This document shows, one piece after another, positions 5,562 to 36,066 of a DNA stretch of 64,000 bases. How positions within the stretch are numbered: position 1 is the first letter of the stretch; each line of letters begins with the position of its first letter. A program made the translations under genes and the position numbers. The stretch spans positions 51,381 through 115,380 of the forward strand of contig JAPLWX010000035.1 in NCBI GenBank assembly GCA_026396415.1. Direction: 5' to 3'. Below the pieces are notes generated by a model. It saw only the letters and a list, made by a program, of their open reading frames with translations, was not told the origin of the DNA and did no database searches. Source of the stretch: Candidatus Micrarchaeota archaeon. GTDB lineage: Archaea; Micrarchaeota; Micrarchaeia; Anstonellales; Anstonellaceae.

Positions 5562-6578
5562 TCATTCTTTATTAACCTTCTTTTGCCGCCTGCTTCCCAT
5601 CCCGAAAAACTCCGCTGACGGGAAATAGACTATCTTGTGCTCCGCAGACCACATGTAATAGCTGTACGTCCGAATCGCAGGCGCAAATTTCGTGCGGAAG
5701 CCGTCTATTACCTTGCGGAACTCCTCGTGGCTCTCCACTTCCATCTCCATCTCAAGCTCGGTGCCGCCGCCAATGCTTTCGTAAGCGTATAATATGTTCT
5801 TGTGCGCGCCAAAGTAAGCCAGCATCGCCTTCTTTTTCGAATTGTCTTCGAGCTGGAACTCGACCTTGTACCAGTAAACGCCTATTTTTTCCATCCCAAT
5901 CTTCGGACGGAAGCCAAGAAGCACTTTTTCCTTTTCCAGCCTCTTGAGCCGGTATTTTGCAGTGTTCACGGACAGCCCCGCTGCTTTGGCAAGCTCCACA
6001 AGGGGCATGCGCGCGTTGCCTGAAAGCGCGGAAAGAAGCCACACGTCCTCCTCGTCAAACTCCACCGGCCTGCTGCTTCCTGCAATCAGGTCGTACTTCG
6101 GCGCTTCCTCGCGCGCAGAAAGGTAATTCCGTCTCCATACGTGGAAGCCGGAGTAGAACGATTCCCGGTAGCTTTCGATTTTGCCCCGGTACTTGTTCAG
6201 CAGTTCCTCCTTCACAGCATGGAAGTCCGCAACGTCCTTCACCCAGTAGGCAATGCCCATGTCGGCAAATGAGCCCGATATGGAATTCACCCACCAGGAG
6301 CGGGGTTCGCGCGCAAACTCCTCCACCATGGCAAGCTCGTCTGCAGGCGACGCGCCCTTCAGCTTTATGAAAACCCTGCCGTTCAGATAACCTAGTTTTG
6401 TGATATCCACAAGCGCATAATAGCCCTGAATTATCCCCTCGCGCTCCATCCTTGCAATCCTGTAGCCCACCACTTCCTTGCTCAGCCTCACCTTCTTCGC
6501 AATCCTCGAGTTCGGCTGCCGCGCATCCAGGTCAAGCTGGTAAAGTATTTCCCTGTCCTTGCGGTCAAGCGTGAGCAT
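5562..6578 (-). CDS. Tandem-duplicated Lrp/AsnC-family transcriptional regulator (two HTH plus RAM units)
   Basis: There are two HTH_AsnC-like segments (DRKDREILYQLDLDARQPNSRIAKKVRLSKEVVGYRIARMEREGII and EDVWLLSALSGNARMPLVELAKAAGLSVNTAKYRLKRLEKEKVL), each followed by a RAM-like domain. The start is the ATG at 6578 within ORF 5562-6701. Confidence 0.8.
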   Translation of the reverse strand: MLTLDRKDREILYQLDLDARQPNSRIAKKVRLSKEVVGYRIARMEREGIIQGYYALVDITKLGYLNGRVFIKLKGASPADELAMVEEFAREPRSWWVNSISGSFADMGIAYWVKDVADFHAVKEELLNKYRGKIESYRESFYSGFHVWRRNYLSAREEAPKYDLIAGSSRPVEFDEEDVWLLSALSGNARMPLVELAKAAGLSVNTAKYRLKRLEKEKVLLGFRPKIGMEKIGVYWYKVEFQLEDNSKKKAMLAYFGAHKNILYAYESIGGGTELEMEMEVESHEEFRKVIDGFRTKFAPAIRTYSYYMWSAEHKIVYFPSAEFFGMGSRRQKKVNKE

Positions 6579-6672
6579 AATCTCATTTTCAATCAAATAT
6601 TTATAAGCATTTGGCTTTTTGAGAAAAAATCTGCTAAGAATTTTTATATATAACATATGCCATAGCGAAAGC

Positions 6673-7416
6673 ATGGGACTTTCAGATTCCTTCAAATCCA
6701 CCTGCCGCGTGCTGTTCGGGCAGGAGATAGGCGAGCTTTCAGGCTACAAGAACTATCTTCTTGACATGGTCGACCAGCCATCGCTTGCCACGTCCGCGCT
6801 TTCAGGCAAGCCAATCCATCTTTCCCGCCCGCATTATGCTAAGAGCGCGCGCTTCGTCGACGTATCCGAAGCATCCGCGCCTTCAGCGGCCGGCGCGCTT
6901 TCCATCAATGATATTAAGGATGTGGACTCGGCGCTTGCTGCTCTCTCTGAGAAAATGGCATACTGCGGCAACAAGAACCTTGGAAGGTCGATGGATGTTC
7001 TGGAATCAGACATGTGCCAGGACTCTATGTACGTGCTTTCCTCCCAGAATGTTATCGAGTCAAAGCACGTTGCCTACTGCAACGGGATAAGGCAGAGCGA
7101 GAACACCTATGGCTGCCAGCTCGGCGGCGAGGTGGGCTTTTCCATCCATTCCCAGGTGTTCTTCTATTCCACGCGCTGCTTTGACGCCTACCTTTGCGTG
7201 AAGTCATCAGACCTTTACTCGTGCTTCAACTGCAAGAACTCGTTTGACGCCATGTTCTGCTTCAACCAGAACTCGGCGAGGTGCGCAATAGGCAACCTGC
7301 AGCTCCCCAAGGAGAAATACATTGAGCTCAAGAAGAAGCTGCTTTCCGAAATAGCGCAGGAACTTGAGGCAAAAAAGAGATTCCCCTCTATATTCGAGGC
7401 GGCGGGAGGCGCTTGA
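6673..7416 (+). CDS. Octapeptide-repeat Cys-rich protein, A-type half (family I cannot place)
   Basis: 247 aa. It has an N-terminal CRVLFGQEIGEL..Y..L motif and a C-terminal CFNCKNSFDAMFCFNQNSARCAIGNLQLPKEKY block. It is homologous to the N halves of 9510-11087 and 33258-34874. Confidence 0.7.
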   Translation: MGLSDSFKSTCRVLFGQEIGELSGYKNYLLDMVDQPSLATSALSGKPIHLSRPHYAKSARFVDVSEASAPSAAGALSINDIKDVDSALAALSEKMAYCGNKNLGRSMDVLESDMCQDSMYVLSSQNVIESKHVAYCNGIRQSENTYGCQLGGEVGFSIHSQVFFYSTRCFDAYLCVKSSDLYSCFNCKNSFDAMFCFNQNSARCAIGNLQLPKEKYIELKKKLLSEIAQELEAKKRFPSIFEAAGGA

Positions 7417-7417
7417 G

Positions 7418-8179
7418 ATGGCTGATAAGCTTGAAGAGGCATTCTCAAATGCCACCCGGCTTCTTTTCGGCAAGCCCCTCTCCCCAATCGCAAAATACGA
7501 GAAGTGGCTCTCGCAGCGGGTGCCTCGCGGCAGGCGCGTGAAATCCTGCTTTGGCACGGGCGAGGCATACCTTCCTGATTACGGATTCTTCAGGAAAATG
7601 CCGCAGACAAAGGTGGCGTCGCTTGAAGACGAGGCAAAGGCAAGCCAGCCTCTTCTCAAAAGCGCGGAAGGGGTGTCCCTATCAGGCATAAGACAGGCGG
7701 TTGCAGCAGGCGCCTATTTCGTGCCCACTTACTCGCAGGGCAACAATATAGGAGTGGAGGATTCGTTCGGCTACATAGACTGCCTCAACGTGAAGCATGC
7801 GTTCGACCCTTTCACCTCTAAAAACTGCGCCTACGCACTTTCCATAATGGAAGCGGAAGGCTCGTTCGGCCTGCACCGCTGCAAGGCGCCGAAATTCTCC
7901 ATCCATCTTTACAATTGCTGGAACGTCCAGCGCTGCTTCGAGATGGACTCGGCGAACAACTGCTCGGACTCTATGTTCTGCCACAACGTGGAGAACCTGC
8001 AGAACTGCCTCTTCTGCTTCAATGTGAAAAGCAAGCGCCATGCAATCGGCAATGTGGAAGTGGGAAAGGAAAAATACTTCGAATTCCGCGCGAAACTCTG
8101 CGCAGAGATGGTGCGCCAGCTTGAGGCAAGCGGGAAAGTTGCATTTGACATCTATGATGTGCTTGGCAGGAAGGGCTAG
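7418..8179 (+). CDS. Octapeptide-repeat Cys-rich protein, B-type half (same family)
   Basis: 253 aa. Its ATG at 7418 overlaps the upstream stop in a TGAGATG arrangement. The TRLLFGKPLSPIAKYEKWL motif and the C-terminal CSDSMFCHNVENLQNCLFCFNVKSKRHAIGNVEVGKEKY block are homologous to the C halves of the fused paralogs. Confidence 0.7.
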   Translation: MADKLEEAFSNATRLLFGKPLSPIAKYEKWLSQRVPRGRRVKSCFGTGEAYLPDYGFFRKMPQTKVASLEDEAKASQPLLKSAEGVSLSGIRQAVAAGAYFVPTYSQGNNIGVEDSFGYIDCLNVKHAFDPFTSKNCAYALSIMEAEGSFGLHRCKAPKFSIHLYNCWNVQRCFEMDSANNCSDSMFCHNVENLQNCLFCFNVKSKRHAIGNVEVGKEKYFEFRAKLCAEMVRQLEASGKVAFDIYDVLGRKG

Positions 8180-8230
8180 CCCCTCACCGCCCCATTGGCT
8201 TCGGGCTCTTGCAGCAATCAAACTTGTATT

Positions 8231-8254
8231 TTACAAAATGCATGCATTTTGTAA
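8231..8254. promoter_or_regulatory. Perfect 24-bp palindrome TTACAAAATGCATGCATTTTGTAA, followed by a direct repeat of TTTTACAAAAT and a TATA-like TTTATATATT at about -30
   Basis: Read directly from the sequence. It is centred about 69 bp upstream of the ATPase ATG at 8311, and the TATA-like element lies at 8281-8290. Confidence 0.6.
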
Positions 8255-8310
8255 CTTTGATTTTACAAAATACACAAACATTTATATATTTATCTATAGA
8301 AACCATAGCT

Positions 8311-9504
8311 ATGGAAGAGCGCATATTTTCCCGCATCTTGGAGGACAGCCGCGCACGCATCATGGCGGCCGCGGCATTCCCGCACAGGCGCTACCTTTAC
8401 AGGACGCTTGCAGGGGTGCCGAAGGAATACTTTGCCGGCGTGTGCGGATTGCGCGGCATCGGCAAGTCCGTGCTTCTGCTGCAGCTTGCATCAGAAGCCA
8501 AGGATTCGCTTTACCTGTCAGCCGACTCGGCCTATCTCAAAGGAGAGGATTTGTACGAAACAATCCGCTTCTGCGCCGCGCGCGGGTACAAAAGCCTGTT
8601 CATAGATGAGATACACTATTCGGATGAATGGCAGTCTGCGCTCAAGACCGCCTATGATGAAGGGCTGGCAAGGATATTCTTCTCAGGCTCATCCGCGCTT
8701 GAGATAGGCAAGGGCGCGGACCTGTCCAGGCGCGCGCTTGTCTACAAGATGTTGCCGCTTTCCTTTCGGGAGCATCTGACTATAAAGCGCGGCTTCCCGG
8801 AAGCGCAGCCGCTTGCGCCAAGGCAGCTTTTCGACCCAAAAAAGAGGGAGCGTGCCTACCTTGAGAACACCAAGGCATCAGCATTCCTTGGGGATTATTT
8901 CGCATTCGGCGGCACAGCCTACCCTGCGCAGGAAAAAGCCTATTTCCACAAGTCCCTTGAGAACACTGTTGAAAAGATACTGCAGTCCGACCTTGCCCGC
9001 ACAAGGGAAATTGGTGCGGCATCAATAGAGGACGCTAAGAGGATGCTCCACTTCATCGCGCTCTCCCCGGCAGGAGAGCTTTCCTATTCCTCGCTTGCCT
9101 CCAAAGTCTCGGTGTCAAAGCCGACCGTGATGCGCGTGCTTTCTGACCTTGAAAGGCTGGGCATGGTGCTGCGCACGCTGCCCTGCGGGAAAAGCTCTGT
9201 CAGGAAGGAGCCCAAGCTCTACCTTGCATTCCCCTTCAGGAGCTTTTTCTGCGACTCGCTTCTTTCGCAGCCTGACATCGGCGCACTCCGCGAGGAATTT
9301 TTCGTGAACCACGCCTATCCAGAAACATGCTACCTCCAGGGGGCGCGCGGGCAGAAGACACCTGACTTCATGCTTGATGGCAAAAGCGTCGAGGTGGGCG
9401 GCGCTGGCAAGGGCGCTTACCAGATGCCCGATTTCATCATGAAGGAGGGCGGCGAATTCACCGGAAAAAGCATCCCGCTTTTCCTTGCAGGGTATCTTTA
9501 CTGA
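8311..9504 (+). CDS. AAA+ superfamily ATPase with a C-terminal wH/DUF4143-like region
   Basis: It has a Walker A (GLRGIGKSVLLLQ) and a Walker B (SLFIDEIHY). The C-terminal KPTVMRVLSDLERLGMV looks like a winged helix. This is the archaeal AAA_14 plus DUF4143 architecture. Confidence 0.8.
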   Translation: MEERIFSRILEDSRARIMAAAAFPHRRYLYRTLAGVPKEYFAGVCGLRGIGKSVLLLQLASEAKDSLYLSADSAYLKGEDLYETIRFCAARGYKSLFIDEIHYSDEWQSALKTAYDEGLARIFFSGSSALEIGKGADLSRRALVYKMLPLSFREHLTIKRGFPEAQPLAPRQLFDPKKRERAYLENTKASAFLGDYFAFGGTAYPAQEKAYFHKSLENTVEKILQSDLARTREIGAASIEDAKRMLHFIALSPAGELSYSSLASKVSVSKPTVMRVLSDLERLGMVLRTLPCGKSSVRKEPKLYLAFPFRSFFCDSLLSQPDIGALREEFFVNHAYPETCYLQGARGQKTPDFMLDGKSVEVGGAGKGAYQMPDFIMKEGGEFTGKSIPLFLAGYLY

Positions 9505-9509
9505 GGCGG

Positions 9510-11087
9510 CTAGCCCTTTCCCGCGATTCCAAACACGCTCAAGCGCAGCCCCTTGCTTTTCCCAAGCTCGTCGGCAATCTGCCCCACAAGCGCGCCTTTC
9601 ACCTGCGCGTACTGCTCTTTTGGGAGCGCAGTATTCCCAATCGTGTGCCTTGCTCCCTTCATGTTGAAGCAGAACATGCACTCGCTCAGGGCTTCGGAAT
9701 TGTGGCAAAAGTACGAGTCAGCGCACCTGTTGCATGAGTCAAGCTCCATGCACCTGTTGAGGTACTGGGAATTGTAGCACTTGAGCGAGAACTGCGACTC
9801 AAGCACGCGGTGGCAGCCGTAGGCATACTTGGAATTGAGCGCCATGGAGGAAAGCGCCACATTCTCCGCATACACGCCGTCATAGCCCTTGTACGCATTC
9901 ACCACATTGTATGCATGCGGGCAGGCAATGAGATTTGAGTTCTGCCCGTCGCTAAGCTCGTTTGTGAAATATGCCATATCTCCCAGTGCGCCAAGCACTC
10001 CTTCCAAGCCAGTCATGCTCGCCTGCGGCATCTGCAGCTTTGCAAGCTCAAACGATTCGCGCGCAGTCACCAGCCTTTGCCTTGGAAAATCCTTGAGGAC
10101 CGGCATGCTGTCCGGAACATGCGTGATTGAGCCAAAAGAAGTGACAACCTCATGCACGCCAATTGTGCGCGCAGATAGCCAGCCCTCGTAATCCTTTATG
10201 CTTCCAGGCAGGCGCTTGAGCAGGATATTGTAGGTCGTGGCAAATCCCTTCTCAATGGGCGCCATATTCTGCACCTGCTTTTCAGGCGCAAGAGCAAGAG
10301 AAGCAGCGCGCGGCTTCACATTCGGCACAAGCTCGCCTAAAGAGGGGAAGCTTCCCTCCTTTTCCAGAATGTCCGCAACCTCTGCAAGTATTTTTCTCTT
10401 GAGCTCCAGGTACTTTTCCTTTGGAAGCTGCGTGTTGCCTATGCAGTAGCTCTTGTTCCTCTGCCCGAAGGAAAACATCATCTCCCGGCTTCCCAGCACA
10501 TTGTGGCAGAAATAGCAGTCGCTTGACGTTCCCACCATGGAGCTTTCAAGGCTCCGCTTCTGCCCATAGGAGTCTGTGACGCGGATAAGGAATTCTCCGT
10601 TGCCAAGCGCGCCGCAGCCGAATATGTGCTTGCTGCCCTTGCGTATCATGAATGAGGAATCGACGTACTGCGATTCTTCCACATTGGTGGAGTTGCGCAC
10701 GTACTGGGAATCCAGCACAATGTCGGATGACTCCACAAACGCGCTGTTGCCAAGGTGCCGATTGCCAGCATACTCGCATTTTTCCGAAAGCGCGCCAAGC
10801 AGCGAATCCACGTCCTTCATGTCATTCACTGACACGCCATAGCCCCTGTTCAGCTGCAGCTCTTCAGAAGACACGAACCGCGCGCTTGAGGGGAAAGCGT
10901 CGAATGCCACTGCCACATCCTTTCCCGAAAGGTGAGACTTGCGCCTTGCCCCGCGCGGAAGGCTTGCGCCTAGCCATGCCTGGTACTTTGCAAGCGGGCC
11001 GATTTCCCTGCCGAAGATTATCCTGCATGCGCTCCTCCAGGACGAATCGAGCTTTGAGTCTAAAGTATTGCTTGACATGGGCATCAC
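9510..11087 (-). CDS. Octapeptide-repeat Cys-rich protein, fused A+B form (same family)
   Basis: 525 aa. The N half aligns to gene A (SACRIIFGREIGPL, SVNDMKDVDSLLGALSEK, CIGNTQLPKEKYLELK). The C half aligns to gene B (YAYGCHRVLESQFSLKCYNSQYLNRCMELDSCNRCADSYFCHNSEALSECMFCFNMKGARHTIGNTALPKEQY). Confidence 0.75.
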   Translation of the reverse strand: MMPMSSNTLDSKLDSSWRSACRIIFGREIGPLAKYQAWLGASLPRGARRKSHLSGKDVAVAFDAFPSSARFVSSEELQLNRGYGVSVNDMKDVDSLLGALSEKCEYAGNRHLGNSAFVESSDIVLDSQYVRNSTNVEESQYVDSSFMIRKGSKHIFGCGALGNGEFLIRVTDSYGQKRSLESSMVGTSSDCYFCHNVLGSREMMFSFGQRNKSYCIGNTQLPKEKYLELKRKILAEVADILEKEGSFPSLGELVPNVKPRAASLALAPEKQVQNMAPIEKGFATTYNILLKRLPGSIKDYEGWLSARTIGVHEVVTSFGSITHVPDSMPVLKDFPRQRLVTARESFELAKLQMPQASMTGLEGVLGALGDMAYFTNELSDGQNSNLIACPHAYNVVNAYKGYDGVYAENVALSSMALNSKYAYGCHRVLESQFSLKCYNSQYLNRCMELDSCNRCADSYFCHNSEALSECMFCFNMKGARHTIGNTALPKEQYAQVKGALVGQIADELGKSKGLRLSVFGIAGKG

Positions 11088-12022
11088 TGCTCCTCCTTGC
11101 CAAGCTGCTCCAGCTCCTTATTCTCCATTATCTTTGCATATCTCTTTTCAAACGTCTTTGCCAAGCCAGCAATGGCTTGGTATAATGGTCTTTTGGCTTC
11201 TTGGCGCGCAGCAAACTCCCTGTTGTATCTTTGAATGTAGAAATCACTCGGGGCATCGCAGAGATTGTGCGTTGGCGGGAAGTTTGTTTCCGGGTTGTCA
11301 ATTTTGATAAGCTTATAGTCCAAAACTTCGTATTCATACCGAAGATCCAAGTGGAACCTCAATAGCGCATTGTCCTTTGGTTCGGTTGCCAGGAAAGTCA
11401 TGCCGTCGATATCCTGGTTTGTGCTCCAGATTGGATTACTAATACCAGAACCCCCCTCTACAAATCTGATTTCACCAAAGTTTCCTGCGCCCCATATATG
11501 GCCCTGGATGTCAGCCCAAAAGTTCTGCCGACTCGCAACGAATCTAGTCCTCAGGCTTTTTTTGTGGATCTTAACAGTAATTGTAGAATCATTGATGATT
11601 GGCTCTATTGTTAGCTTCCCATCGCGCGCAAAGCCTTGGTGGGCCCAGAAGGTCTGTTCAACGCGCGCGTAATCGATGCCTTCTTTTTTATCCACTTTTC
11701 CAATGGGAGGAATCTGAAAAACCACTTTTGTCCCATTTGTAGTTGACTTGACTATCTCGTCAACCCCACCAAGCGGGCCGAGTGTGGTTGCGATTAGGGT
11801 TCCTGTCCCCAAAGGGAACATTTCATTTAGCCCGCTTATTCCACTATGCCCTTCCTTAAGGGCGCGTATTTCATGTGCGGGCAAAATGACAAGCCTGTTT
11901 TTATTTGCAAACTCAACTGCCTGGACCCAGCCTTTATTGCCGGATATCTGATATAGAGTGGGCATCTTGTAGCCCAAGGTTTGCAAACCCTCAATCTTTT
12001 TCACTTGGTTCATAGTCAACAT
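11084..12022 (-). CDS. Hypothetical protein (unassigned alpha/beta domain)
   Basis: ORF 11084-12199. The start is chosen at the internal ATG at 12022 to avoid a 109-nt overlap with the upstream gene, and is uncertain (12079 and 12013 are alternatives). There is a 4-nt overlap with the Cys-rich gene C downstream. Confidence 0.5.
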   Translation of the reverse strand: MLTMNQVKKIEGLQTLGYKMPTLYQISGNKGWVQAVEFANKNRLVILPAHEIRALKEGHSGISGLNEMFPLGTGTLIATTLGPLGGVDEIVKSTTNGTKVVFQIPPIGKVDKKEGIDYARVEQTFWAHQGFARDGKLTIEPIINDSTITVKIHKKSLRTRFVASRQNFWADIQGHIWGAGNFGEIRFVEGGSGISNPIWSTNQDIDGMTFLATEPKDNALLRFHLDLRYEYEVLDYKLIKIDNPETNFPPTHNLCDAPSDFYIQRYNREFAARQEAKRPLYQAIAGLAKTFEKRYAKIMENKELEQLGKEEQ

Positions 12023-12090
12023 CCCAATCAACCTCCAATTTTTTCCATTTTTCCAAAGTTTACGCTGAGGCTTATGCATTTGGCGCACTC

Positions 12091-13209
12091 CTAACTCTTG
12101 GATATCTCGGCCGCTTTGTCCACTGTCTGTATGGCACCTATTCTTGCACGGATTGCTTTCGCAGCCTCGTCCGCGGCTTGGAATATATCCTGTATGCACC
12201 TCAAAGCGAACTGGGAATGTAAATATTGGGACTGCACATTGTCCAATATTGGCAAAACCGATTCATCCCCAACCCTTCCAAGTATCCGCGCAGCCCATCT
12301 CTTATGGTCGGGCTCGATATCCCTCTCCACAATTATGGCCAGAGTTTTGGTCAATTCTGAGCGCACCAACTCGTCTGTAACCTGGTTTTCAGCAGTAAGT
12401 CTGAGGAGAGCACATATGATGTTGTGTCGGACGTGGCTTGTTTTTCTCAACAGTGCTCTTGTCAATGGTGCAATTGCAGCCGCTGAGCCTGTTCTTTCCA
12501 ATGCCATTGCCGCGCTGCCCCCGTCATATTCGCCCGATTCCACCAGGAGCTTGGCCAAGGCAGGTATCTCGCTTCCGGCGCTTTTGCTATTCCCGATATA
12601 TCTAGCCACCCAGTTATCGATATACATGCGGTGCGGCTTGTTGCCATAAACATAAATAAAACTGGTCAAAGCATTTGTTGCGGTTGGAGAGTCAATCATC
12701 CCAAGAGCCACCACTATGCCGATGTTTGGCTGCCCCCTGCTCTTTTTGAGGCGGTAGGTGAGCTTCCGCAGAATCTTTTCCCCGCCCAGGCTGCCAAGCG
12801 CAATGCCGATTGCCTCTTGAGCGTGCTCGTCACGGGCATATCCCAAATCCAGCGCATCGAAAAGCTTGGAGACAACTTGGGTCTTGTCAATTTTGTACCC
12901 AGTAGCGCTAAGCTCGAGAAGCTCGTAGGCGGCGTCCTTAGCATTATTGCCGTGAAGCTGATTCAGGAGTTCGAACAGCTCTTTTTTCTTTTCTTCGCGT
13001 GCATCTCCCATGAGTTTTTGCCGCTCAAGCAGAGGAAGCGCCTTGAACGTGCTAAGAGCTGTTCCATCAACCTTTCCAAGTATCCCCTTCCGACGCCCAA
13101 GAAAATATTGTTTAGATCCGCCCGCGCCAACTATGGAATGTGTATATGTTTCAGGATTCGCTATTCCAGGCACACGAATCAACCTCTCGCCTTTCACTAT
13201 TATTGCCAT
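12091..13209 (-). CDS. HEAT/PBS-lyase-type repeat protein
   Basis: It has repeated ~30-aa units of the form AxxALGxIGxxxAxxxLxxLL, for example AARILGRVGDESVLPIL and AMALERTGSAAAIAPLTRAL. Confidence 0.65.
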   Translation of the reverse strand: MAIIVKGERLIRVPGIANPETYTHSIVGAGGSKQYFLGRRKGILGKVDGTALSTFKALPLLERQKLMGDAREEKKKELFELLNQLHGNNAKDAAYELLELSATGYKIDKTQVVSKLFDALDLGYARDEHAQEAIGIALGSLGGEKILRKLTYRLKKSRGQPNIGIVVALGMIDSPTATNALTSFIYVYGNKPHRMYIDNWVARYIGNSKSAGSEIPALAKLLVESGEYDGGSAAMALERTGSAAAIAPLTRALLRKTSHVRHNIICALLRLTAENQVTDELVRSELTKTLAIIVERDIEPDHKRWAARILGRVGDESVLPILDNVQSQYLHSQFALRCIQDIFQAADEAAKAIRARIGAIQTVDKAAEISKS

Positions 13210-13344
13210 CCCAATCCACCTCCATTCTGTTTCTTTTCCTGTTCTTGTGTGGTTTAGTGTGGCATAACTTATATATTAAAATTAGCAAGCAAAAATAGCA
13301 CAAAAATGCAAATATTTATAAATAAATTGAGTTATAAGCAACTA

Positions 13345-14319
13345 ATGGCGGAAATGATGGAGCTTGACCTCCTTGACAGGCGCATAATGCACGAGCTGGA
13401 CCTGGACGCGCGCATTTCCGCGTCGCAGCTTGCGCGGAAAGTCAGGAGGAGCAAGGAGACGGTGAACTTCCGCCTCAACAGGCTGCTGCGCGAAGGGTAC
13501 CTGAAGGGATTCTACACCGTCTTTAACACATCCAAGCTAGGCTGGTTCTACGTGAAGCACTACATAAAGTTCAAGGACACCACGCCGAAAAAGGAGGCCG
13601 AGATATTCGAGTACCTGCGCACGCAGCCCAATGTAGCCTACCTGGCGTCTGTTGAGGGAAGGTACGACTGCCTTCTCTTGGTAATAGTGCCCCAGATGGC
13701 GCGCGCGGATGCGTTCCTATCGGCATTCATGGCAAGATACGGCGATTATGTGCAGGCAAAGGACATGACGGTGCTCCTCTCCACGCACAGGCTCAATGCA
13801 AAGTTCCTATTCGCAGGCAAGGAGAGCAGGGACTGGCATTACAAGTATGAGCTGGGAAACTTTACGCCCGACGCAGTGGAGCGCAGGCTATTGGCAGAGC
13901 TTTCCTCAAACGCGAGGATCCAGCTTCTTGAGCTTGCCAAGAAGTGCGGCATCTCGCCTACTGCAGCCGCCTACAGGATGCGAAAGCTGGAGGAGGAGCA
14001 AATCATCCTTGCCTATGTTTCCGAGCCCAATTTCAGCAAGCTGGGACTGCGCTTTGCGCAGGTGAACATCTCGCTTAAGGACCCTGCAGTTAGGAAGCAG
14101 ATAATCTCCTACTTCGACGCCACAAACACGTGCCTGTTCGCAATCGAGATGATGGGAAAGTACGACATCCTTGTGGAGGTGCACACGCAAAGCGAGCAGG
14201 AGCTGCAAAAAATAGTCGACGGCTTCCGCGAGAGGTTCGTGGGCAAGTATGCTGACTACGACGTGTCAACAATAACAAAAGAATACCTCGTGGTGTGGGG
14301 CCCGTTTGCCGAGGGCTAA
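13345..14319 (+). CDS. Tandem-duplicated Lrp/AsnC-family transcriptional regulator (paralog of 5562-6578)
   Basis: There are two HTH_AsnC segments (LDRRIMHELDLDARISASQLARKVRRSKETVNFRLNRLLREGYL and ERRLLAELSSNARIQLLELAKKCGISPTAAAYRMRKLEEEQII), each followed by a RAM-like domain. The start is the ATG at 13345. Confidence 0.8.
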   Translation: MAEMMELDLLDRRIMHELDLDARISASQLARKVRRSKETVNFRLNRLLREGYLKGFYTVFNTSKLGWFYVKHYIKFKDTTPKKEAEIFEYLRTQPNVAYLASVEGRYDCLLLVIVPQMARADAFLSAFMARYGDYVQAKDMTVLLSTHRLNAKFLFAGKESRDWHYKYELGNFTPDAVERRLLAELSSNARIQLLELAKKCGISPTAAAYRMRKLEEEQIILAYVSEPNFSKLGLRFAQVNISLKDPAVRKQIISYFDATNTCLFAIEMMGKYDILVEVHTQSEQELQKIVDGFRERFVGKYADYDVSTITKEYLVVWGPFAEG

Positions 14320-32253: not shown

Positions 32254-33213
32254 TCACCATTCTATTTTCCTTATTTTCGCGCGCTCGCTTGACAGTATCT
32301 GCTGCTCTGCGAACTTCTTGCAGACGGCAAGCGATTCGCGCACGCTGCCTTTTTCGCCTGTTGCGGCTGCAGCTGTTTCATGCCCGCCGCCGCTGCCACC
32401 CATCACTTTGCCCACTTCGGACATTATCCTGTCAAGGCGCACCTGCCCGCGAAGCGAGTCGCGTGCGCGCGCGGAAATCCTGCCATCTTCAGCCTCGCAG
32501 CCCACGAATGCCGCGTCTGCGCCGAGAGAAACCAGGATGTCCGCGAAATGCGCCTCGTGCGACTTTGCCATGGCAAGCGCGATGATATGCTCCCCTGCGC
32601 GCTCTGCAGACACCGAGGCGCAGGAGCGCACTGCTTCCAGCCGCTCGGAAAAAGAGTCAGGAGCGTGGGAAAGCGAAAGAAGTTCTGAATAGGAAATGGC
32701 TGACCGCGCCAGCAGGTCGGATGCCGCCCTGAAAGTGGCTGGCGTTGCGCTCTTGAAGTTCGCGCTGTCCGAGATTATGCCAAGCAGGAGGGCAATGCAG
32801 GAGAGCCTGTCCTTTGGCTTGAGCATGAAGTAGAGGATTTCGCACGTGGAGGATGCCGACGGGTCGTTAATCACTTTTTTTGCAGCCACTTCCCCGCCCA
32901 GCCGCGAGTGATGGTCAACCATCAGGTCTGGCTGGATGCCGGTGAGGTGCGCTAGCATTTGCGGGGAGGAGGAATCAAGGACGATGATGAAGTCGTTTGG
33001 CGCGCGCTTGATTTCCGGGAAGAGAGAATAAGGGGTGCCGGTGTAATCCAGGAGCTTGCGTGCTGCAGAAGCTGGCTTGTCAGGCGCTGCTATGACTGCT
33101 TTCCTGCCAAGCGCGCGCGAAAGCGCAATCGCCCCGCCCACTGCGTCCAGGTCGCCGCCCGAGTGGAAGGTGATGATTATGCGCTTTGAGGATATCTTTG
33201 GAAATCTTGCCAT
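32254..33213 (-). CDS. DHH-family phosphoesterase (NrnA-like, DHH plus DHHA1)
   Basis: FHSGGDLDAVGG, VDHH and the DHHA1 GGGH motif (MGGSGGGHETAAA). Confidence 0.8.
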   Translation of the reverse strand: MARFPKISSKRIIITFHSGGDLDAVGGAIALSRALGRKAVIAAPDKPASAARKLLDYTGTPYSLFPEIKRAPNDFIIVLDSSSPQMLAHLTGIQPDLMVDHHSRLGGEVAAKKVINDPSASSTCEILYFMLKPKDRLSCIALLLGIISDSANFKSATPATFRAASDLLARSAISYSELLSLSHAPDSFSERLEAVRSCASVSAERAGEHIIALAMAKSHEAHFADILVSLGADAAFVGCEAEDGRISARARDSLRGQVRLDRIMSEVGKVMGGSGGGHETAAAATGEKGSVRESLAVCKKFAEQQILSSERAKIRKIEW

Positions 33214-33257: not shown

Positions 33258-34874
33258 ATGCGAAACAATCATATGCAAACGCAAACCGAAACGCCAGTAT
33301 ACAACGAACTTGACAAGTCGTGGAAAACCACCTGCAAGGTGCTGTTCGGCAGGGAAGTGGGAGAGCTTAATCTTTTCCAGGAATGGCTAGCCTCGCAAAA
33401 TCCCCGGCTTGCCCACGCGCCCTCATCGCTTACAGGCAAGGACATCACGTATTTCATCACCGACTATTGCGAGGGCTCCAAAAGGGCATCCTTGGACGAG
33501 GTCTGGAAGCTCAAGAAGTTCCCTGCCCTTTCCATCAATGAAATCAAGGACGTGGATTCCCTGGTGGAGGCTATCCAGGACAGGGCTTATTACACCGGCG
33601 ACGTGGTGCTGGGCAACTCGAAATTCATAGAGGCAAGCTCGAACTGCAAGGATTCCTACTATGTGCTTGGCTCCGGCGCAATCAGCGATTCGAAGTACAT
33701 CTGCAACTCGGCCAGGCTGAAGGAATGCGAATTTGCATTTGGCTGCGACGGCGTGGGCGAGTCCAGGTTCCAGGCCAGGGGCTATGAGGGCTACAGGCTG
33801 ATGCGCTGCCTGGAGGCCTGGAAATCCCAGACGAGCTCGGACTGCTATTATGTCAACGGGGTGCTTGACTCCTCCAACTGCATGTTCTGCTTCAACGTGA
33901 GGAACAAGAGATATGCCATCGGCAACCTTGAGCTTCCCAAGGAAAAATACCTTTCAATAAAGCAGGGGCTGGTTGCCGAGATGGCGGAGCAGCTTGAAAA
34001 AAAGCATTCGCTGCCCTCCCTGGTCGAGATAGTTGGGAAATGCAAGGGGCATGGTTATCGGGAGATATTGCCTGAGCTTAAGAAGCTGGAGAAAGCGGCC
34101 AAGCCAGACATGGCAAAGATAGAATCCATTTTCGGGAATACTACCGAAATGCTGCTTGGAAAGAGGCTGGGCGGGATTGATGGCTACTCGGACTGGCTAC
34201 GAAAGCATGTGCTGAAAATGGATGTCGGCAAATCCATCATAAGCGGCAAGCCCATGCTTCTGGCAGACTACTCAAATTACCTTCTCTACCCAAGGAACCG
34301 GCTGGTGACCATGCTGGAGGCTGAGTACATTGGCGACCATTTGCGCCTTGACCCTGCAGAGGCGGAAAAGCTGTCTTTCGCCTCGATTTCAGAGGGCATT
34401 TCCAAAATCGCCTATCTTTCGCCCGAATTTTTCTTCGGCGAGAACATCAATGTCACGGAATGCTCCACGCAATACCAGTCCATGAACGCCTACCGCTCGC
34501 CAGGCGCATCCTTCACCAAGAACACCGCGTATTCGTTCTGGCCAAGGAAAGGGGACTGCATATTCGGCTCCTCCATGGCATTCGAATGCTTTTTCTGCAT
34601 CAACTGCTACTACTCGGAAAACCTGAACAGGTGCTTTGAGGTGGACAGCTCGAAATCGTGCAGCGACTCGTATTACCTGCACAATTGCGAGAATGTCCGC
34701 TCCTCCATGCTCTGCTTCAATGCCAAGAACCTGGCTTATGCCGTGGGGAATACGGTCGTGGGCAAGGAGCAGTTCGGCAGGGCAAAGCGGATGCTTCTCG
34801 AGTGGGCAAACGAAAAGCTTGCCAGGAAAAAAGAGGTGCCCTTAAGCATTTTTGATGTGGGATGCCGCCAGTAA
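33258..34874 (+). CDS. Octapeptide-repeat Cys-rich protein, second fused A+B paralog with a ~150-aa linker
   Basis: N half: TTCKVLFGREVGEL, SINEIKDVDSLVEAIQDRAYYTG and CMFCFNVRNKRYAIGNLELPKEKY. C half: CFEVDSSKSCSDSYYLHNCENVRSSMLCFNAKNLAYAVGNTVVGKEQF. The start is the ATG at 33258 or 33273. Confidence 0.75.
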   Translation: MRNNHMQTQTETPVYNELDKSWKTTCKVLFGREVGELNLFQEWLASQNPRLAHAPSSLTGKDITYFITDYCEGSKRASLDEVWKLKKFPALSINEIKDVDSLVEAIQDRAYYTGDVVLGNSKFIEASSNCKDSYYVLGSGAISDSKYICNSARLKECEFAFGCDGVGESRFQARGYEGYRLMRCLEAWKSQTSSDCYYVNGVLDSSNCMFCFNVRNKRYAIGNLELPKEKYLSIKQGLVAEMAEQLEKKHSLPSLVEIVGKCKGHGYREILPELKKLEKAAKPDMAKIESIFGNTTEMLLGKRLGGIDGYSDWLRKHVLKMDVGKSIISGKPMLLADYSNYLLYPRNRLVTMLEAEYIGDHLRLDPAEAEKLSFASISEGISKIAYLSPEFFFGENINVTECSTQYQSMNAYRSPGASFTKNTAYSFWPRKGDCIFGSSMAFECFFCINCYYSENLNRCFEVDSSKSCSDSYYLHNCENVRSSMLCFNAKNLAYAVGNTVVGKEQFGRAKRMLLEWANEKLARKKEVPLSIFDVGCRQ

Positions 34875-34877
34875 GCC

Positions 34878-35234
34878 TTAACGGAGCTTTCCCTCTCTTA
34901 ATGCCTTCTCAAGCCCCGTGCGCAATTCGTCGTATTTCGGGCGCATCTTGGTCTCCTGCTTCTCAAGCACTCCCACGCGCATCTCGAACAGCTCGCGCTT
35001 GTCCTTCAGGTCCGCGCCGGCATCCGTCTTGTTGGTCTCGATGAGAAGCGGGCCCACGTAGCGGTAGATTGTCTTGTCGGATTTTGCAAGCTCGTTCTCT
35101 GCCATCTTTATCTCCTCGACCTGCATGATGAGCTGCTGCTTCTGGCTTGACACCATCTGGAGCTGGCGCTGCAGATCCTGGAATTCCGCAAGGTTCTTCT
35201 GAAGCTCGTCCGCATTGCGAAGCTGCTCTGCCAT
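34878..35234 (-). CDS. pfdB: Prefoldin beta subunit
   Basis: 118 aa. It has two coiled-coil arms around a beta-hairpin (YRYVGPLLIE). Confidence 0.8.
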   Translation of the reverse strand: MAEQLRNADELQKNLAEFQDLQRQLQMVSSQKQQLIMQVEEIKMAENELAKSDKTIYRYVGPLLIETNKTDAGADLKDKRELFEMRVGVLEKQETKMRPKYDELRTGLEKALREGKLR

Positions 35235-35823: not shown

Positions 35824-36066
35824 TTATGACCTCGTCTTGTATTCCTTTATCAGGCGCGCCGCCACATCCCCGGAGGGCGTGGACAGGGAGTAGGTGCCGC
35901 CCGCGAAAACCGCGCCGCAGGATTTGCATTCCCACAGCGAGTTGCCCTTGCGCTTCACCTTCTTCTTGCCGCATGCGCCGCACACGAAAAGCGTGCGCTT
36001 CTGCACATCCATGCGGTCTGCGCGCTTGCGCAGCTCAGCGCCGGATCTTACATCTCTTTTTGACAT
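35824..36066 (-). CDS. rpl37ae: 50S ribosomal protein L37ae
   Basis: CGACGKKKVKRKGNSLWECKSCGAVFAGGTYSLSTPSG is the zinc-ribbon core of L37ae. Confidence 0.9.
   Translation of the reverse strand: MSKRDVRSGAELRKRADRMDVQKRTLFVCGACGKKKVKRKGNSLWECKSCGAVFAGGTYSLSTPSGDVAARLIKEYKTRS

Follow-up and report, generated by a model that had tools for sequence, protein, structure and literature searches.

A Micrarchaeia-specific protein family built of two paired halves with a 12-residue repeat, predicted to form narrow beta-helices that meet at one conserved junction

What are the four related open reading frames (ORFs) in this stretch of a Candidatus Micrarchaeota archaeon genome that share a cysteine-rich repeat, and how do the two that encode half-size proteins relate to the two that encode full-length ones? 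The ORFs lie in 64,000 nucleotides (nt) of assembly GCA_026396415.1 (contig JAPLWX010000035.1, positions 51,381 to 115,380, forward strand), which we refer to as the window, and we denote them genes A to D (Table 1). They belong to a family specific to the class Micrarchaeia (DPANN archaea), built of an A-type and a B-type half, with a sequence period of 12 residues in each half; prediction and covariation support a narrow beta-helix fold and an antiparallel packing of the halves. The fuller reading that we favour is that these are soluble pseudo-heterodimers with one composite, probably metal-binding junction, whose paralogs differ in specificity and are controlled by dedicated regulators; taken in its entirety, we regard this reading as evenly poised between right and wrong.

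The preliminary description of this DNA placed the four ORFs in a single family, and BLASTP comparisons bear this out, with E values from 1e-24 to 1e-102. The product of gene A is related to the N-terminal halves of C (42% identity, E 7e-53) and D (37%, E 1e-50), that of gene B to the C-terminal halves of C (28%, E 3e-39) and D (31%, E 1e-34), A and B are related to each other (29%, E 2e-24), and C and D share 35% identity over 522 aa (E 3e-102). A tblastn search finds no fifth copy in the window. All six halves (A, B and two each from C and D) are colinear in alignment with small gaps only, and they show the features that had been described, LFG..G....Y..WL at the N terminus and, at the C terminus, a Cys block closing in IGN..LPKEKY. 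Gene C is the A+B fusion it was taken to be, and we add that it lies on the minus strand, which had not been stated. Gene D is likewise a second A+B fusion, but an insert of about 150 aa attributed to it is not there, as its 538-aa product aligns end to end with the 525 aa of C. The closest ortholog of D is 67–69% identical and is found in related locus L053. An NCBI protein of 524 aa (P0001) is 100% identical to the gene C product, and the residue numbers used here for C follow it.

That the family matches no characterised domain was also correctly anticipated: Pfam and NCBIfam give no credible match to the products of A to D, PADLOC has no match to A, B, C or D, and PDB sequences yield nothing with either single-protein or profile queries. 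NCBI names one homolog (P0045) a zinc ribbon, and the C product does contain CxxC pairs (C451/C454 and C469/C472); zinc-ribbon models of Pfam and NCBIfam do not match the four window proteins. Full-text searching of the literature found no description of the family. A paper on DPANN protein families treats lineage-specific hypothetical families only in general terms (PMC8204110), and a 2026 preprint about cysteine-rich repeats proved to be unrelated.

The relationship of split to fused forms is clear from 78 related loci, in which ORFs were called and then sorted with hidden Markov models (HMMs) of the two halves; gene A scores 280 bits against the N-half model and gene B 217 bits against the C-half model. 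Both forms coexist in these loci, as they do in the window. All 148 of the 148 fused proteins have an A-type half followed by a B-type half, and the half-size genes (39 A-type and 37 B-type) include 28 adjacent pairs in the order A then B, with spacings of adjacent halves from -59 to +34 nt; the C-then-N junctions seen in arrays are simply those between consecutive pairs. The best match of an A-type domain is never B-type, nor the reverse, and the two types form separate clades. Because best matches never cross type and the order is uniform, the A/B duplication must be older than all of the forms seen, with a fixed order and no interchange of halves. The two halves are thus ancient duplicates, as had been proposed, and it is the further suggestion of a module with exchangeable halves that fails, against the uniform A-then-B order of both fused proteins and split pairs.

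Genes A and B had been described as overlapping at stop and start, but they are only adjacent: the junction reads GGGAGGCGCT TGA G ATG, with the A stop at 7414–7416, one spacer base, and the B start codon at 7418. The Shine-Dalgarno-like GGGAGG sits 8 nt upstream, and A and B are probably translationally coupled. Gene B is in the +1 frame relative to A and begins one base past its stop, an appearance that a frameshift in a fused gene could produce, and we considered whether A and B are fragments of one fused gene and the family itself a product of composition or assembly error. There are, however, 39 full-length split A orthologs (~247 aa, with identities as low as 42%) and 63 full-length split B orthologs (~253 aa, as low as 34%) drawn from many independent assemblies, and a distant genome (L002) retains an A-then-B pair, with an 8-nt overlap, amid a different gene neighbourhood. 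The split domains moreover find their best matches mostly among other split domains (29 of 35 and 30 of 34). The conservation of the split pair refutes an origin of A and B as a frameshifted pseudogene, and we regard the artefact explanation as a whole as negligible.

The repeat had been described as an octapeptide, but its period is 12 residues, made up of two hexads. Autocorrelation of a profile from 115 homologs has peaks at lags of 6, 12, 18 and 24, and when columns are shuffled none of 2000 shuffles reaches the value observed at lag 12 (z of 4.4 in the N half and 6.5 in the C half); lag 8 falls below the shuffle mean (z of -2.1 and -2.4). Stacked by 12 the sequence falls into a clean register, as in FVESSDIVLDSQ, YVRNSTNVEESQ and YVDSSFMIRKGS, with a coil pattern of x-V-x-x-S-x-x-V-x-x-S-x and Y/F-V-x at positions 1–3, and every third residue (positions 2, 5, 8 and 11) appears to point inward. 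An AlphaFold2 (AF2) model of C built with 115 homologs has a mean predicted local distance difference test score (pLDDT) of 87.3 and a predicted template modelling score (pTM) of 0.89. The model of B is somewhat poorer (pLDDT 82.7, pTM 0.74) with weaker first coils (blocks over residues 111–160 have pLDDT values of 55–67), and in it strands recur each 12 residues, one residue in three of each 12-mer forming a beta-bridge. A modelled half begins with two N-terminal helices and a hairpin, and continues with a further helix, some 115 residues of very short strands, and a long helix. The models thereby support a half composed of a small helical/hairpin head, approximately ten coils of a narrow beta-helix, and a long C-terminal helix, and they uphold the earlier idea of a repeat solenoid as far as the class of fold is concerned, without pointing to any one relative. 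Foldseek comparison with the PDB has no match below E=4, and what solved structures share with the family goes no further than the solenoid class in general.

Mean-field direct coupling analysis (DCA) of 365 fused sequences (effective number, Meff, 305) was used in place of measured distances, and also supports the narrow 12-residue helix. Among the top 150 couplings the commonest separation is 12 (20 pairs) and the next is 4 (19 pairs), the latter being attributed to helices, and the i/i+12 pairs span residues 115–213 and 376–482. Couplings between the halves follow a distinct pattern. The A head (hairpin 55–65, R80, helix 92–99 and L111) is coupled, in B, to the coils of the tail and the C-terminal helix (P65-G522, at rank 3, K55-G508, V57-V495, L95-L499, R80-M446, F64-D449 and L111-S439), the A tail is coupled to the B head (G207-S344, M203-L360 and G198-F333), and there are symmetric pairs (E227-V314 and S248-E312). 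This is the pattern of an antiparallel, pseudo-two-fold dimer, and an antiparallel arrangement of the halves is thus supported by prediction and covariation. The DCA pairs also bear on the possibility that these are self-assembling filament or cytoskeletal proteins, bactofilin- or curli-like, with helices stacked end to end. Both ends of each helix are capped, by the head and by the C-terminal helix, and these caps are coupled to the core; there is no Bactofilin or Curlin match, and the obligate A-B pairing and asymmetric junction described below are more readily explained by a closed dimer than by an open polymer. We give filament formation very little credence.

Antiparallel packing would bring a conserved A head against a conserved B tail. 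Mean column conservation is 0.52 in the A head against 0.41 in the B head, and 0.63 in the B tail against 0.51 in the A tail, such that the B tail is the most conserved region. Among 461 A-type domains, residues S50, S53, G54, E75, K90, D91, D93, Y105, G107 and G112 of the head are 89–98% conserved, and among 472 B-type domains R444, C445, E447, D449, C454, D456, F459, H461, N462, E464, F471, C472, F473, N474, K476 and N484 of the tail are 85–99% conserved. From covariation and conservation, the two best-conserved regions appear to meet at a single junction and the symmetric junction (B head and A tail) appears to have decayed, a pattern expected of a pseudo-heterodimer with one working site. 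Cysteines make up 3.8% of residues in the family versus 1.1% in neighbouring proteins, and, in keeping with the coil, the Cys-rich columns of both domain types all fall at multiples of three. They occupy presumed inward positions, spaced 6 apart, in only the last three to five coils, with Val/Ile and Ser in the earlier ones. In the B tail C436, C445, C454, C460, C469 and C472 tend to be kept or lost jointly (phi 0.3–0.5).

We propose the following mode of action. The working unit would be one A-type and one B-type half, either fused (~525 aa) or encoded by two adjacent coupled genes, and the one junction of A head and B tail (S50, S53-G54 and K90-D91-x-D93 opposite R444, C445, E447, D449, C454, D456, C460-H461-N462, E464, C472 and K476, all 85–100% conserved) would be its functional site, most likely a Zn or Fe centre that binds a ligand or partner or is catalytic. 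Specificity would differ among the many old paralogs, and their expression would probably be under the ligand-sensing regulators adjacent to them (tandem Lrp and HTH_10). The preliminary description had raised metal binding or disulfide stabilisation; a metal site at the junction is the more tentative part of our proposal, and we consider it possible but doubtful.

Several observations weigh against this interpretation. Most Cys columns are only 25–60% Cys and readily accept Ser, Val, Ala, Leu or Met instead, in the manner of core residues, and the A-type tail columns 186, 192 and 198, each 6 apart, show size compensation (phi -0.52); free exchange and size compensation favour packing over ligation. 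The pairs F459/F471, C460/C472 and N462/N474 are exactly 12 apart and would stack as ladders, so several of the conserved B-tail residues could be purely structural; H461, E447, D449, D456, E464, R444 and K476 are the better functional candidates from the pattern of conservation. The AF2 model of C is less sure exactly at residues 441–480 (block means 65–73), and DCA with a Meff of about 300 is noisy, with a paralog structure that can inflate couplings. At least 11 paralogs per genome are many for a single-function enzyme, and the adjacency to regulators is missing for some copies, including D. Finally, there is no homolog of known function, so that any biochemical role is a guess.

Among the relatives listed, the family is confined to one lineage. 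Gene C has homologs in at least 229 clusters at 90% identity, all of about 520 aa and without Pfam domains, and those that are named come from Candidatus Micrarchaeota, Micrarchaeia, Anstonellaceae or Bilamarchaeaceae. A scan with one genome per species gave 322 relatives, of which the best 80 are labelled Micrarchaeota or Micrarchaeia save for a few unclassified archaeal metagenome-assembled genomes (MAGs). When 1.84 billion cluster representatives were searched exhaustively with a profile, 1822 matched at E<=1e-3, among them 679 with E<=1e-10 and 329 with E<=1e-30, and the best 150 of the 1822 are all family members or fragments; the weak tail, the likely place of distant relatives, lies outside these 150. 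The presence of relatives in many independent assemblies also disposes of the concern that homologs might be absent elsewhere, as would be expected of an assembly artefact. No relative is found in a plasmid collection by tblastn or in a scan of viral contigs, and a tblastn search of a phage collection with B gives one insignificant match only.

Three copies in 64 kb had seemed unusual, but such density is typical of the lineage. The 78 related loci contain 231 family ORFs in arrays of up to seven units, and one genome of ~1.4 Mb has at least 11 units. Paralogs within one genome have a median identity of 39%, compared with 66% for the best match in another genome, and the copies are therefore old and individually conserved rather than a recent burst. 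We rejected a proviral origin, as the paralogs have orthologs across genomes and some arrays are beside housekeeping genes such as carAB. In Anstonella stagnisolia (locus L001, 15608–17161) one copy is divided between an ORF of 442 aa and, after it, another of 55 aa that matches the C-terminal end of the family; a frameshift, an error of sequencing or decay of the copy may be the cause.

The proteins are predicted to be soluble and cytoplasmic. They have pI values near 7, no signal peptide or hydrophobic N terminus, and no hydrophobic or membrane segment (the maximum 19-residue Kyte-Doolittle mean is 1.17). A surface, binding or toxin-like role had been suggested, and we considered secreted or surface effectors for interaction with the host. 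With no export signal, such a role is hard to reconcile with what is seen. The N terminus is a conserved helix coupled to the core by DCA, length is tightly conserved, and the paralogs are not hypervariable but old and conserved, with 66%-identical orthologs across genomes. Nor is there a PADLOC match, or a relative in the plasmid, phage and viral-contig collections. We consider the effector explanation very unlikely.

The genes adjoining the family carry further information (Table 1). In the window the two tandem Lrp/AsnC regulators are paralogous and flank the region containing A, B and C, both facing outward, the first being divergent from A across a putative promoter region. In the close relatives L004 and L005 each tandem-Lrp ortholog is directly divergent from a family gene, with the ortholog of the second adjoining that of C, and the divergent arrangement occurs at 14 places in the 78 loci with a median gap of 95.5 bp; this neighbour, whose conservation the preliminary description had asked to be checked, is conserved. 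A different regulator of ~240 aa, with an HTH_10 domain (Pfam), is directly upstream of arrays at 17 places. The AAA_14/DUF4143 gene between B and C, for which the same check had been asked, is beside family genes at only two of the 78 loci and looks like an insertion and not a partner. The 371-aa ORF upstream of C has a TGA that overlaps the C start codon (TGATG), with AAGGAGGAG just upstream, and C thus looks translationally coupled to it here. Neither this ORF nor the HEAT-repeat ORF is present at any of the 78 loci, and we rejected all three as partners on these counts (2/78, 0/78 and 0/78). Gene D sits among housekeeping genes with no adjoining regulator.

Table 1. Coordinates of family genes, conserved segments, neighbouring genes and compared phage genes. 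Positions are those of the window unless a locus is named; window genes carry locus tags NTX79_054xx.
Feature	Position	Strand	Description
Gene A	6673–7416	+	Split A-type (N-type) half, 247 aa; SGK and IKDVDS head motifs, predicted 12-residue beta-helix and C-terminal helix
A/B junction	7404–7420	+	GGGAGG (Shine-Dalgarno-like), TGA of A, one base, ATG of B
Gene B	7418–8179	+	Split B-type (C-type) half, 253 aa
B tail coils	7934–8053	+	Residues 173–212: C173, E175, C182, C188, H189, N190, E192, C200, N202, K204, N212; invariant or near-invariant columns, alignment A2
Gene C	9510–11084/11087	-	Fused A+B; 524 aa from ATG at 11084 (NCBI start), 525 aa from GTG at 11087
B-type tail coils of C	9633–9779	-	Residues 436–484: C436, R444, C445, E447, D449, C454, D456, C460, H461, N462, E464, C469, C472, N474, K476, N484; 472 B-type domains
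Gene D	33258–34874	+	Second fused A+B paralog, 538 aa
Tandem Lrp/AsnC regulator	5562–6578	-	Two HTH_AsnC domains (Pfam, NCBIfam); divergent from A
Intergenic region	6579–6672		94 bp, AT-rich, contains TTTTTATATATA; between the Lrp gene and A; putative promoter region
AAA_14/DUF4143 ATPase	8305–9504	+	Winged-helix region; between B and C; PADLOC candidate system PDC-S01, E 4.7e-22
371-aa ORF	11084–12199	-	Upstream of C; no Pfam, PADLOC or PHROG match
HEAT-repeat ORF	12091–13209	-	Upstream of the 371-aa ORF, same strand
Second tandem Lrp/AsnC regulator	13306–14319	+	Two HTH_AsnC domains (NCBIfam); divergent from the gene C strand; 64% identical (tblastn) to the L005 regulator
DHH/DHHA1 phosphoesterase	32254–33213	-	Near D
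Prefoldin beta	34878–35234	-	Near D
Small zinc-ribbon-like ORF	35824–36066	-	Near D; taken from sequence as ribosomal protein L37Ae
phrog_15341 member, Campylobacter phage CPt10_1641	L079, 1447–1872		Named insect-antifreeze-like by depositors
phrog_15341 member, Vibrio phage 1.238.B	L080, 1414–1788		Named insect-antifreeze-like by depositors

A third recurrent neighbour in the related loci is a HerA/DUF87/TrwB-like ATPase of ~650 aa, found within two genes of 22 of 40 arrays, and it offers a different account of the family. The proteins could be non-catalytic scaffolds or adaptors for this HerA/FtsK/VirD4-like ATPase, each paralog presenting a different rigid beta-helix surface to a protein or nucleic-acid client, with the conserved junction as its docking site and the ATPase as motor, for instance to move DNA or protein between symbiont and host. 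The adjacency is kept whichever way the genes face (21 are convergent and 8 tandem, the upstream tandem cases having gaps of -8 to 34 nt), old conserved paralogs are a feature of other repeat-protein scaffold families, and no catalytic motif is recognisable with Pfam or NCBIfam. Set against this, most of the pairs are convergent and hence not one operon, the ATPase matches known families only in the surroundings of its P-loop, and the adjacency may be inherited synteny. The window itself lacks such an ATPase, as it does an HTH_10 gene. We consider an adaptor role unlikely, if worth keeping in mind.

The ATPase gene (minus strand, 8092–10050 in locus L044, with equivalents in 35 loci) is itself Micrarchaeia-specific, encodes an acidic low-complexity tail, and is often beside a PALP gene with a C-terminal extension. 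Threonine-synthase-like PALP genes are present in 10 loci and in L002 one is directly upstream of the A/B pair.

Returning to the reading of regulated, junction-bearing pseudo-heterodimers, we note that Micrarchaeia genomes are of only ~1–1.4 Mb and have lost most biosynthesis, and that one of them keeps at least 11 old units of ~1.6 kb, an estimated little over 1% of the genome. Such retention in a reduced genome usually marks a function central to lifestyle, and many copies adjoin transcription factors of their own. The conserved link to regulators and ATPase is of further interest. At its broadest, the family, the dedicated regulators and the HerA/FtsK-like ATPase could be an unrecognised cytoplasmic machinery that defines the Micrarchaeia, in which at least 11 specialised beta-helix heterodimers sharing one metal-containing composite site would mediate the traffic of DNA, protein or metabolites to and from the host, whether as adaptors or as enzymes; we offer this as speculation, and think it quite unlikely to hold in full. 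In any case the class has in this family a clean phylogenetic marker, and work with the few Micrarchaeia co-cultures has a defined target.

Several known systems invite comparison. The hexapeptide acyltransferases LpxA, GlmU and DapD (PF00132) are trimers in which the hexapeptide motif has i/i+4 spacing; the family has no Hexapep match, 18 is not among the listed DCA separations, its small or hydrophobic positions recur at every third residue, and its unit is a pseudo-dimer. CsgA, a secreted amyloid subunit whose repeats are ~20 residues long, differs in having only 5% identity and no Curlin_rpt (PF07012) correspondence to the family, which has a 12-residue repeat and no signal peptide; the Bactofilin model (PF04519) also gives no match.

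The only library family with a recurrent match is phrog_15341: at a threshold of E<=0.01 it is matched by 34 of 59 B-type proteins, the best of them at 3.3e-8. One of its members, from Vibrio phage 1.238.B, is annotated 'insect antifreeze protein'. The match covers ~50–90 residues of the Cys coils and ~90 of the 276 profile positions, and true members of phrog_15341 score 1.8e-70 and 3.6e-10; hhalign of alignment A2 with the CPt10_1641 protein gives 81% probability over 47 columns. Both have Cys at each third residue, but the phage proteins are 124–141 aa of almost pure C-x-x-C-x-x hexads with no head, C-terminal helix or A-B duplication, and the similarity may be one of shared repeat chemistry or convergent composition and not of common descent.

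SufB and SufD form a heterodimer of paralogous beta-helix proteins with Cys and His at the interface, driven by the ABC-type ATPase SufC. The likeness is conceptual: two paralogous beta-helix subunits with helical domains at the ends, one conserved Cys/His/acidic junction, and an ATPase gene nearby. The coil of the family is much narrower, however, there is no PF01458 match, the ATPase is HerA/FtsK-like, and there are at least 11 paralogs per genome. We rejected a SufBD-like Fe-S scaffold, as there is no sequence or fold match and there are too many paralogs.

The closest likeness in coil is to the antifreeze protein of the beetle Tenebrio molitor (TmAFP; PDB 1EZG, PF02420), in which the coil consensus is TCTxSxxCxxAx with residues 2, 5, 8 and 11 inward; to our knowledge this coil geometry is otherwise found only in insect antifreeze proteins. 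The 12-residue period is common to both (in the family by autocorrelation, DCA and AF2 strands), and the family has small residues at the same positions 2, 5, 8 and 11, and cysteines spaced 6 apart in the last coils. Neither the PF02420 model nor a solved TmAFP-type structure is matched by the family, which has Cys at positions 2 and 8, as an intra-coil disulfide would need, in only its last three to five coils, the first coils having Val or Ile, and Tyr or Phe at the outward position 1 in place of a Thr-x-Thr ice-binding face; it also has no signal peptide and is taken to be intracellular, and its coil is set between a head and a C-terminal helix and duplicated into the A-B unit. With an intracellular location and no TxT face we rejected an antifreeze function, and some of the source MAGs, going by their isolate names, are presumably from hot springs. 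Beta-solenoids as a class of fold and antifreeze-like coils as a type are already known; this particular family is covered by neither a curated family nor a solved structure. If the predicted fold is correct, an intracellular archaeal protein would have a 12-residue beta-helix of antifreeze type, and the family would provide a series leading from a split heterodimer to a fused pseudo-dimer in which one of the two sites has degenerated.

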